A DNA stretch of 64,000 nucleotides from Polaromonas sp. (GCA_043777795.1 JAYWHJ010000090.1:2687-66686), one strand, 5' to 3'; shown: positions 51,601 through 53,031, numbered from the stretch's first letter. The notes: generated by a model not told the origin, from the sequence alone. A program made the numbers and translations.

Positions 51601-51752
51601 CTTGGTCACGTTGCGGCGATGGAGGAAGTTGCGCTGTCAAAAATTTACGAAAACACGCGCGAATACCGTCGGTAGTACAACCACCATTTGTACCGCGCGC
51701 CTTTCTCCAGTTTTTGCATCACAACCACACTCCATCACCGCTTGCTGGCTTG
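51601..51752 (-). repeat. Family-B repeat, left inverted arm
   Basis: Two blocks match the reverse complement of the right arm: 51601-51643 with 52989-53031 (42/43) and 51708-51752 with 52885-52929 (45/45). A divergent spacer of about 60 bp separates them. Confidence 0.85.
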
Positions 51753-51940
51753 CGTGGTGCGCGCTTAGAGCCGGCTGGTTGCTGCTTCGATCTGCTCACG
51801 GCGCCTGAGTCTATGTGGAACGCGAGATCAGCATGCATTGCAAAATGCCTAAAAGTCAGATATCAAACCTACCTGAAAATGGTGTAAATTTAGATCGAAC
51901 TCTGCAATTTTTCGCAGATGATTGATATCTACAGAAAACC

Positions 51941-52738
51941 ATGCCCTCCCGCGCATCCTTGTTGCTTGCACTTGTTGTTGGGTCGACCTGCAACTTCGCG
52001 TCCGCCCAAGACGTATTAGGACAGGCGCGGCTAAGAGTGTATCTACTTAGTACCTATACAGTGATAGCTGAGAAAGCCTGTGTAGAGAAGTACTCAGACC
52101 TTAAGGTGCCTCTAGCCCTTGCTAGAAGTGAATTTCAGCAGAAGTTGACTGTTGACGTTGAACTTGGAAAAGAGTTTGGCAAAGCACTCGTTGCAAAGCG
52201 TGGTGAAGACATTGGAAAACTGGCTGAGCGGCTTGCATGGCAGGATCTCGAGAAATTTGTGGCTACGCCACACCAGGGTTTTCGGCAGCTTTGTGATGAC
52301 TTGGTTCGTGAGACAAAAAGTCGTGCCTATTGGTCGATTAATGACTATCTCCGGGAGGATTTCGAGACGCACATGATGGCGGTGGGAAATCGGCAAGCGC
52401 TGCCATGCAGCTTCATTCCCTTAAGGCTAAAAGGTATTGCAAGTCGTTTCATTAATCGAGGACACCAAACTACCGAACCAGACCTAGTTCTTGACCAACT
52501 TTTTTATCTTGAGGTGCTTGATCTGTCCGAAAAAGTATCTAACTGCCTTGCTGGGCAGGCGCGAGCGACAGAGTATCGGGTTGTTCCTGGCGTAGAGTTG
52601 CAGACGATCAGCGGGATTGTTAACTCGCTGCAAAGCGCGCTGATGCCGTATCGGGAAAGCAGCACTGAGAAAACCGAGGTCATGCGGGTCGCCAAGGAAC
52701 GTGCAACTGAGTTTTTGCGTGAGCAAGAAGGAAAATGA
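51941..52738 (+). CDS. Orphan secreted protein (265 aa), low GC
   Basis: Signal peptide LLLALVVGSTCNFASAQD. Composition is roughly 50% GC in sampled 60-nt stretches, against clearly higher flanks. No recognisable motif. Confidence 0.6.
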   Translation: MPSRASLLLALVVGSTCNFASAQDVLGQARLRVYLLSTYTVIAEKACVEKYSDLKVPLALARSEFQQKLTVDVELGKEFGKALVAKRGEDIGKLAERLAWQDLEKFVATPHQGFRQLCDDLVRETKSRAYWSINDYLREDFETHMMAVGNRQALPCSFIPLRLKGIASRFINRGHQTTEPDLVLDQLFYLEVLDLSEKVSNCLAGQARATEYRVVPGVELQTISGIVNSLQSALMPYRESSTEKTEVMRVAKERATEFLREQEGK

Positions 52739-52740
52739 GG

Positions 52741-52786
52741 TTGTAGACCAATAGAATATTGCGGGAATTGCTACGCAATGCATAGC
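52741..52786 (+). repeat. Family-A repeat copy just after the orphan gene stop
   Basis: TTGTAGACCAATAGAATATTGCGGGAATTGCTACGCAATGCATAGC. Confidence 0.7.
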
Positions 52787-52884
52787 CTATGGTTTTCGTT
52801 GATACATTCGCCAGCGAGCCCTACAGACTCCGATTCGCCAATATGCTCGGCTCCGTCACACGCTGGCATCTGATGCGTAGTTAC

Positions 52885-53031
52885 CAAGCCAGCAAGCGGT
52901 GATGGAGTGTGGTTGTGATGCAAAAACTGAAGAGAGGCGCGGGGATCAACTCTATATGACTACTCAGCCAGTCGCGTGTTCTCGTAAGTTTTTGACAGCG
53001 CAACTTCCTCCATCGCCGCAGCGTGACCAAG
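52885..53031 (+). repeat. Family-B repeat, right inverted arm
   Basis: See the left arm; it ends 15 bp from the srkA stop codon. Confidence 0.85.

Follow-up and report, generated by a model that had tools for sequence, protein, structure and literature searches.

The stretch of DNA examined here, 64,000 nucleotides from Polaromonas sp. (GCA_043777795.1 JAYWHJ010000090.1:2687-66686) and referred to as the window, carries a small gene that is enclosed by two long inverted repeat arms and lies between an argB-like and a srkA-like gene. Both arms are members of a dispersed repeat family, here named family B, and the arms together with the enclosed gene, called the cargo, form a family-B module. 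The features of this locus are given below, with positions counted from the first letter of the window.

51569-53059: family-B module, arms plus cargo (family profile)
51569..51771, plus strand: left arm, family B, with its outer end toward argB and its inner end toward the cargo (nhmmer, E 2.8e-56)
52858..53059, minus strand: right arm, family B, with its outer end adjoining the 3' end of srkA (nhmmer, E 1e-52)
51582..51589, plus strand: TTGAAGAT motif by the outer terminus of the left arm, present in most B copies (multiple alignments with flanks)
53042..53049, plus strand: outer motif of the right arm, ATCTTCAA (sequence read directly)
51613..51741, minus strand: long left-arm hairpin; pairing is better on the minus strand, which runs from the cargo outward (RNA fold)
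52896..53019, plus strand: long right-arm hairpin; pairing is better on the plus strand, which likewise runs from the cargo outward (RNA fold)
51941..52738, plus strand: cargo gene, 265 amino acids (open reading frame, ORF)
51858..51930: 22-nt imperfect inverted repeat, 73% complementary, in the AT-rich leader just 5' of the cargo start codon
52729..52792, plus strand: family-A short repeat, similar to repetitive extragenic palindromic (REP) sequences, directly 3' of the cargo stop codon (nhmmer, E 8.4e-16)
50513-51432, minus strand: amino-acid kinase ORF, argB-like, PF00696
53046-54131, minus strand: APH-family kinase ORF, srkA-like, PF01636

In the original prediction for this locus, an earlier reading of the same sequence, the arms were described as inverted copies with near-identical outer and inner blocks around a divergent centre. 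This description was confirmed by repeat search, alignment and BLAST. The repeat search returned the inverted blocks 51595-51659/52973-53037 and 51688-51752/52885-52949, each 65 nt long and 92% complementary, and the inverted matches of 42/43 positions in the outer block and 45/45 in the inner block (an exact match of 45 nt) are indeed present. Compared block by block, the left and right arms are 95% identical in the outer block, 25% in the centre and 96% in the inner block, and the BLAST alignment gives 84% over 158 nt. The stop codon of srkA is located inside the outer motif of the right arm, where TCA at 53046-53048 reads as TGA on the minus strand.

The enclosed gene, 51941-52738, is a genuine ORF on the plus strand, and its low GC content had been predicted correctly. 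The GC content is 0.499 for the cargo ORF and 0.485 at its third codon positions (GC3), against 0.59-0.66 and 0.63-0.80, respectively, for five neighbouring genes, and a sliding-window profile gives 0.47-0.51 between the arms and ~0.6 outside. The predicted family-A repeat was found within the enclosed segment as well. The absence of a nearby recombinase gene also held, as no recombinase or invertase was found among the ORFs of 49500-55500 or among the called genes with Pfam domains nearby. A scan against Rfam (cmscan, 50000-54500, E up to 1) returned two chance-level matches only, both outside B, and no family that fits B. The 22-nt inverted repeat in the leader of the cargo gene may be a regulatory site.

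A search for the arm elsewhere in the genome placed it in a dispersed repeat family. The window's own assembly (G000) is an incomplete metagenome-assembled genome (MAG) of 3.65 Mb in 359 contigs, in which at least 18-19 BLAST matches to the left arm and at least 31 matches to the family profile, 19 of them full-length, were obtained. Family B is present in 16 of the 18 other genomes of the genus that were searched, the exceptions being G001 and G016, and in 0 of 22 other genera, and the B core pattern was found in 1 of the 201 genera of the taxonomic family (301 genomes). The best outside matches of SrkA (77%) are likewise to MAGs labelled Polaromonas sp. A copy of B is ~175-200 nt long and has no coding capacity; the insertions and deletions in its centre are not multiples of three. 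Being small (below the usual limit of ~300-500 bp), non-coding and present in multiple copies, B has the dimensions of a classical MITE (miniature inverted-repeat transposable element). As with terminal inverted repeats, its outer and inner blocks are inverted relative to each other, giving 39 pairs, and it has unpaired conserved tails in addition. A composite transposon, in which complete insertion sequences (IS) with a transposase flank the passenger, does not describe the module, as B is non-coding. In a MITE review, the genome paper of Polaromonas JS666 is cited for MITEs of this genus.

Evidence that B is mobile comes first from a solitary copy at G000:C17:3477-3679, which is a 172-nt insertion relative to G014:C415, with flanks that are 85-89% identical. 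At this one filled/empty site, no target-site duplication is found (ACACCA/.../CTAACG against ACACCAG/CTAGCG). TCTAAAGAT, a variant of the outer motif, sits within the 172-nt insertion, and the outer motif therefore belongs to the B element itself. In addition, the complete-quality genome G008 contains ~13 copies with near-identical centres, spread over seven contigs inside a larger composite repeat, which indicates a recent spread of B. Judged from these sequence comparisons, the solitary insertion and the G008 copies together point to mobility, and B is a dispersed, non-coding element that is mobile or was so recently.

Several observations concern the surroundings of individual B copies. 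Among 16 G008 loci (L225-L240), the composite repeat around the ~13 copies is conserved, is longer than 400 nt and includes a (CTCTGTGCG)n microsatellite, often with a family-A repeat just before it. In G014:C242 (L186 2100-2240), a B arm carries a tandem triplication of its outer terminus with a unit of ~40 nt, and in G008:C23 (L035 1085-1125), five copies of GAGTCTTT precede a B arm; these two cases indicate that repeats at B's outer ends are locally unstable. Partial B cores, consisting of the outer block only, are also present in the window at 57114-57184 and 59763-59870, upstream of a response-regulator gene and just past the stop codon of its kinase gene; they frame a complete two-component operon.

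Membership in this family accounts for the similarity of the two arms. The left arm is 90% identical to the copy at G000:C17:31161-31314 and 86-87% identical to two further copies, against only 84% to the right arm. Each arm also has an ortholog in another species: the left arm is 93% identical to the equivalent arm in G003, and the right arm is 92% identical to the arm beside srkA in G009. Copies at C17:31340, in G014 and in G008 match the left arm at 95/93% in the outer/inner blocks and at 67-72% in the centre. Since unrelated loci and other species match the left arm equally well, the near-perfect blocks of the two arms are explained by a family-wide constraint. The arms of the window carry different centre subtypes, and the pair is heterotypic and old. 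The suggestion that the arms reflect a recent event or ongoing gene conversion was therefore not upheld, as the block identity is common to the family.

The copies of B are not scattered at random with respect to each other. Neighbouring copies less than 7 kb apart were collected from the window's own genome and from loci fetched from relatives, and 21 of these 25 neighbour pairs are convergent, with the inner ends facing, while 2 are divergent and 2 are tandem. In G000, 10 of the 19 full copies form 5 convergent pairs, where ~0.16 would be expected under random placement by our own estimate. Paired arms enclose between 22 bp and 6 kb of DNA, whose GC content is 0.43-0.55 against 0.576 for the genome, and the shortest pairs hold little except a family-A repeat. 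The outer gene points toward B in 48 of 54 informative cases, meaning that B usually lies just past the 3' end of a gene; the left arm of the window, upstream of argB, is one of the six exceptions. Thus, convergent pairs just downstream of genes are by far the prevailing arrangement of B. Paired arms are often of the same centre subtype (7 of 13 pairs are above the 90th percentile of all-against-all identity), and even then they differ by 15-25%.

Comparison of the argB-srkA junction across eight genomes of the genus showed what happens to such a pair over time. In four relatives (G008, G013, G014 and G015), the two genes are separated by 95-454 bp and B is absent, which agrees with the earlier view that the segment is an insertion of foreign composition. 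G014, despite having no B at srkA, carries GGTTGAAGA at the srkA stop codon, for which a target motif and a remnant of a lost B are both conceivable. In G006, a partial right arm is present at the junction, and in G009, with a SrkA that is 94% identical, only the right arm is found, together with unrelated DNA. In G003 (93%), both arms are located at equivalent positions, and they enclose a different insert of 683-713 bp that encodes a small membrane protein of ~109 amino acids. The window and G003 are homologous exactly up to the inner terminus of B (the last shared bases being ...CTTGCTGGCTTG). The spacer in G009 (L062 ~3690-4310) holds another inverted pair of ~45 nt (CTCACTAAAGCGTAGCACGCTATCTAATAAACTCAGTGGGGTACC and its complement) around ~500 bp, possibly another MITE-like family.

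A second slot of this kind is found downstream of glpK. Five species carry a pair of B copies there. The pair is convergent in four of them; in G003 it is tandem, the two copies at G003:C54 (L191) lying in the same orientation (-,-) and 839 bp apart, which is one of the two tandem cases mentioned above. The inner DNA, of 157, ~840, ~950, ~1130 and 1893 bp, is unrelated between the species. As pairs occur at the same positions across species with differing inner DNA, the arms are old residents and it is the enclosed DNA that changes; pairs persist at given chromosomal positions while the DNA between them is replaced. At the glpK slot of G000 (C17 ~31383-31600; L020 4384-4600), the last ~20 codons of glpK (RAERRFVPTLDTARAKEL) are duplicated directly after the right arm of the module, followed by a partial B in plus orientation. 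The arrangement suggests that the slot's edge once underwent recombination or duplication.

The cargo of the modules is low in GC and mutually unrelated between modules. In other modules, it includes four GNAT acetyltransferases, an HNH nuclease, NYN, DUF1643 and DUF695/RraB proteins, a P-loop protein and small secreted or membrane proteins. The largest pair (L083, G000:C164:9959-16378) encloses 6 kb and holds at least six small accessory genes, among them DUF1643, DUF695/RraB and a gene for a protein similar to secreted lysozyme inhibitors, and no transposase or recombinase was found within it.

Each copy of B can fold into a long hairpin, and this structure was studied in 43 distinct copies from the window's own genome and its relatives using RNAalifold. 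The consensus is an interrupted hairpin of 39 pairs, 21 of which show compensatory double changes. Paired cells amount to 96.6% against 84.9% in shuffled alignments, double-change cells number 178 against 58, and the covariation score is 0.34, compared with 0.14 in shuffles and 0.04-0.07 with slid partners; none of 500 shuffles reached the observed pairing and covariation values. As in REP doublets forming hairpins (REPINs), B is thus an inverted doublet that folds into a hairpin and evolves by compensatory changes. Its two flanking blocks are conserved, its apex varies, and the unpaired nucleotides of the internal loop are strongly conserved (AGAAAGG / GUGUUUUCG).

Only one of the two strands is under selection for the hairpin. 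The consensus folds at -57.5 kcal/mol on one strand and at -20.7 kcal/mol on the other, and G-U cells number 194 against 10 A-C cells (an A-C cell being a G-U on the opposite strand), a count in which many G-U cells descend from subfamily founders and are not independent events. G-U recurs at ~14 pair positions and A-C at 1. The favoured strand reads from the inner (cargo) side outward, and is therefore the minus strand for the left arm of the window and the plus strand for the right arm. The left arm (51590-51765) folds at -73.2 kcal/mol on the minus strand and -65.9 kcal/mol on the plus strand, with a z-score of about -4, and the right arm (52872-53042) at -65.6 kcal/mol on the plus strand (z -4.19). 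The hairpin is maintained by compensatory substitutions and is selected on the strand that runs from cargo to outside. Mutation bias was considered as a source of the G-U excess and rejected, as the bias is opposite to the one expected for the coding strand of the adjacent genes. The strand asymmetry points to a single-stranded form, either RNA or DNA, since recognition of double-stranded terminal repeats would not give rise to it.

Taken together, 51569-53059 is best read as a single B module, in which convergent, genus-restricted hairpin repeats bound a slot for swappable foreign DNA, and we give this reading, including the mechanism proposed for it, a probability of about 60%. Its descriptive part, with genus-specific, strand-specific hairpin repeats paired around small foreign cargo at persistent slots, has good support. 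In this mechanism, B would be moved as a single-stranded hairpin by a trans-acting enzyme, in a REPIN-like or IS200/IS605-like manner, and paired copies would become the boundaries of chromosomal slots. Cargo would enter or be exchanged either through mobilisation of the whole B-cargo-B unit or through recombination via the arms, which, being conserved genus-wide, could serve as portable homology. REPIN-like or IS200/IS605-like biology is favoured because of the hairpin, the strand asymmetry, the lack of a target duplication and the conserved GTAG in the loop. A further-reaching version, in which the slots would be an undescribed gene-acquisition system with a host-encoded single-stranded DNA enzyme that recognises strand-specific hairpins at the 3' end of either strand, a layout known from the inverted terminal repeats of single-stranded DNA replicons, and captures, moves or swaps small cargo at fixed positions downstream of core genes throughout the genus, is speculative, and we consider it rather improbable.

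Among known systems, REPINs and their REP-associated tyrosine transposases (RAYTs) are similar in many respects. REPINs also consist of two conserved inverted blocks around a short variable spacer and form a long hairpin with compensatory changes; B, too, is non-coding, intergenic and persistent within its lineage, inserts without target duplication and has a conserved GTAG. On the other hand, B exceeds REPINs in length (a ~130-nt core with conserved tails) and is present in tens of copies where REPINs reach hundreds, its GTAG is part of the apical loop, no Y1/RAYT gene with adjoining B copies was found, and convergent pairs around variable cargo are not a described feature of REPINs. The Correia repeats of Neisseria and the enterobacterial repetitive intergenic consensus (ERIC) sequences, or intergenic repeat units (IRUs), share with B the imperfect palindromes of 100-200 nt, the restriction to a genus or family, the location next to genes and the orientation-dependent RNA hairpins. 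Correia repeats differ in having a TA target duplication and short terminal inverted repeats, whereas B shows no duplication at the one site tested, and neither Correia nor ERIC repeats are known as systematic inward-facing pairs around swappable genes.

The arrangement of the module is also reminiscent of systems in which passengers are bracketed by short sites. In MITE-flanked composites, such as integron mobilisation units and those class 1 integrons of Acinetobacter that lie between MITE pairs, non-autonomous repeats bracket passengers with no transposase inside. Those composites are rare, recent and single events with target duplications, whereas pairs are the normal state of family B, are old, occupy conserved loci and show cargo turnover. 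The pdif modules and the attC sites of integrons, including Vibrio cholerae repeats (VCRs), likewise bound small cargo modules whose enzyme is encoded elsewhere and whose cargo consists largely of orphan genes and GNATs, and attC sites share with B the strand-specific hairpins, conserved ends and variable centre. In the minimal mobile elements of Neisseria, a given site is occupied by different small cassettes depending on the strain or species, presumably through homologous recombination in the flanks; the flanks of a B slot differ in that they include a dispersed repeat, which makes the homology portable between loci, in principle. A flip/flop inversion of the B centre, as known from parvoviral terminal repeats, was considered and rejected, as GTAG has the same orientation in both centre subtypes.

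Several results weigh against the slot reading and its mechanism. Only one clean filled/empty comparison is available, and a precise deletion in G014 would explain it equally well. No case of identical cargo and arms at two different loci was found, and movement of a whole unit is accordingly not demonstrated. No partner enzyme of B was identified. Genes similar to Y1_Tnp/RAYT (PF01797) are present in 19 of 19 genomes, and there is no B within 1.5 kb of the 20 loci examined, so that the arrangement typical of REPINs, a single-copy RAYT gene flanked by the repeat, is not seen. B has 0 matches among the plasmids of PLSDB and 0 among the viral contigs of IMG/VR, and homologs of the cargo protein from other organisms lack flanking B copies. 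Fragmented MAGs make up most of the relatives, and the copy numbers are minimum values. To this come the founder effect in the G-U counts described above and the antisense orientation of the selected strand relative to the adjacent outer genes, which pure transposition leaves unexplained and which also fits a role at the RNA level. With regard to an autonomous parent of B, none was found in plasmids or viral contigs, and a single match was obtained in JGI metagenome contigs.

The strongest alternative is that B acts mainly in cis as RNA. The long hairpin would block or process transcripts that leave the inter-arm segment, acting, for instance, as an RNase III site or an antisense barrier, and would insulate the core gene from transcription of foreign cargo; convergent pairs would then reflect that each arm shields the gene at whose 3' end it lies. 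ERIC and Correia hairpin repeats act on mRNA stability. The direction in which the hairpin is selected, from cargo outward, agrees with such a role, as do the 48 of 54 cases in which B directly follows a gene that points toward it and the high conservation of the unpaired internal-loop nucleotides. There is no U-tract after the hairpin, and no consensus promoter, terminator or terminator-like site was called across 51300-53200. Moreover, an RNA role leaves the spread of copies, the near-identical bursts and the occurrence of B pairs at shared junctions far above chance unexplained. As the principal function, it is considered unlikely; an RNA-insulator role is nonetheless a serious rival to the mobile-slot reading, with which it is compatible, and the two may coexist.

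A second alternative is that the arms are sites for a site-specific recombinase of the host, similar to the pdif modules of Acinetobacter plasmids, with their inverted 28-bp XerC/XerD sites, or to the folded attC sites of integrons, and that cargo enters or leaves as a cassette at B's inner end. This would fit modules that are bounded by inverted sites and carry no recombinase of their own, the alternating orientation (+, -, +) along C17, the exact end of homology with a sister species at the inner terminus, and the conserved ends, variable centre and strand-specific folding, which resemble attC. The dif-like pattern CATAAT-N6-TTATG is absent from B, although this is a weak test, as the pattern does not occur in the whole incomplete MAG assembly either. 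The arms are inverted and not direct, cassettes are not arrayed in tandem and direct orientation, an integrase or attI context is absent (no search aimed at integrases, or at intI, was made), and the neighbours are core genes. Solitary copies of B also insert alone, unlike recombination sites. A mechanism of the Xer or integron type is thus less likely than both the favoured reading and the RNA role, and is given little credence.

The third alternative is the model of the original prediction, in which the arms are a recent inverted duplication, or are maintained by conversion, and homologous inversion of the enclosed gene acts as an orientation switch. The exact cargo protein is encoded on contigs from five samples. 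The assemblies from three of these, ERZ27315222, ERZ27314333 and ERZ28573525, span both arms and are 100% identical over 1.7 kb in one orientation, and two short Logan contigs end within the exact inverted block. Although the exact 45-nt block and the 42/43 block would in principle suffice for rare RecA-mediated inversion, this model is very improbable, as the arms are just 84% identical overall with differing centre subtypes, each has a nearer relative elsewhere, including orthologs in other species, the three independent assemblies agree on a single orientation, a similar architecture encloses unrelated cargo at more than 20 loci and is found at many loci with the cargo on one or the other strand, and no invertase is present near the locus. 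The practical outcome for the locus is negative: the pair represents no fresh inverted duplication or other recent event, and it is not a switch by inversion or phase variation.

The cargo protein itself had been described as an orphan with no recognisable domain. The lack of a domain was confirmed, as no Pfam match was obtained for it or for three other cargo ORFs. It is not a strict orphan, because an exhaustive HMMER search among 1.84 billion representative proteins returned 13 distant homologs with 25-48% identity, and it thus belongs to a rare family. A word-indexed protein search returned only the query's own cluster, and a scan of species genomes with the protein gave no match. The cysteines C47, C118, C156 and C202 are invariant in the family, and the N-terminus looks like a signal peptide, judged by eye and not with a predictor. 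Together, these features suggest that the product is probably a disulfide-bonded periplasmic or secreted protein. With the alignment as input, AlphaFold gives an all-helical model with a predicted local distance difference test (pLDDT) of 87 and a predicted template modelling score (pTM) of 0.78, compared with a pLDDT of 37 for the single-sequence model. No structural neighbour of the model was found in the PDB (best E 0.6, template modelling score <0.3).

Other repeat families are also present in this genome. Family A (consensus ..CCAATAGAATATTGCGGGAG.AGCTA..) has ~755 profile matches in 3.65 Mb, or about one per 4.8 kb, and 17 matches in the window, between 2258 and 54208. It was considered as a specific part of the module and rejected, as with ~755 copies genome-wide its presence here is possibly incidental. 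One family-A copy lies ~430 nt from the single Y1_Tnp (RAYT-like) gene of the assembly, on G000:C313. In the window at 34266-34833, inverted repeats around a small ORF between trpE and trpG (GGGGATTTTTTGAACGCAGAGGGCG...) fit neither family A nor family B, and at least three distinct hairpin-repeat families are therefore present in the genome.

Family B, family A and the other hairpin repeats account for many unusual sequences within and between the genes of these genomes, and also for assembly breaks. In addition, B would be a new and clean case of single-strand selection on the structure of a repeat. If the slot reading is true, the paired copies would offer this cold-environment genus of betaproteobacteria a simple route to sample small accessory genes, with no integrases or IS inside the cassette; the cargo observed includes secreted proteins, acetyltransferases and nucleases.

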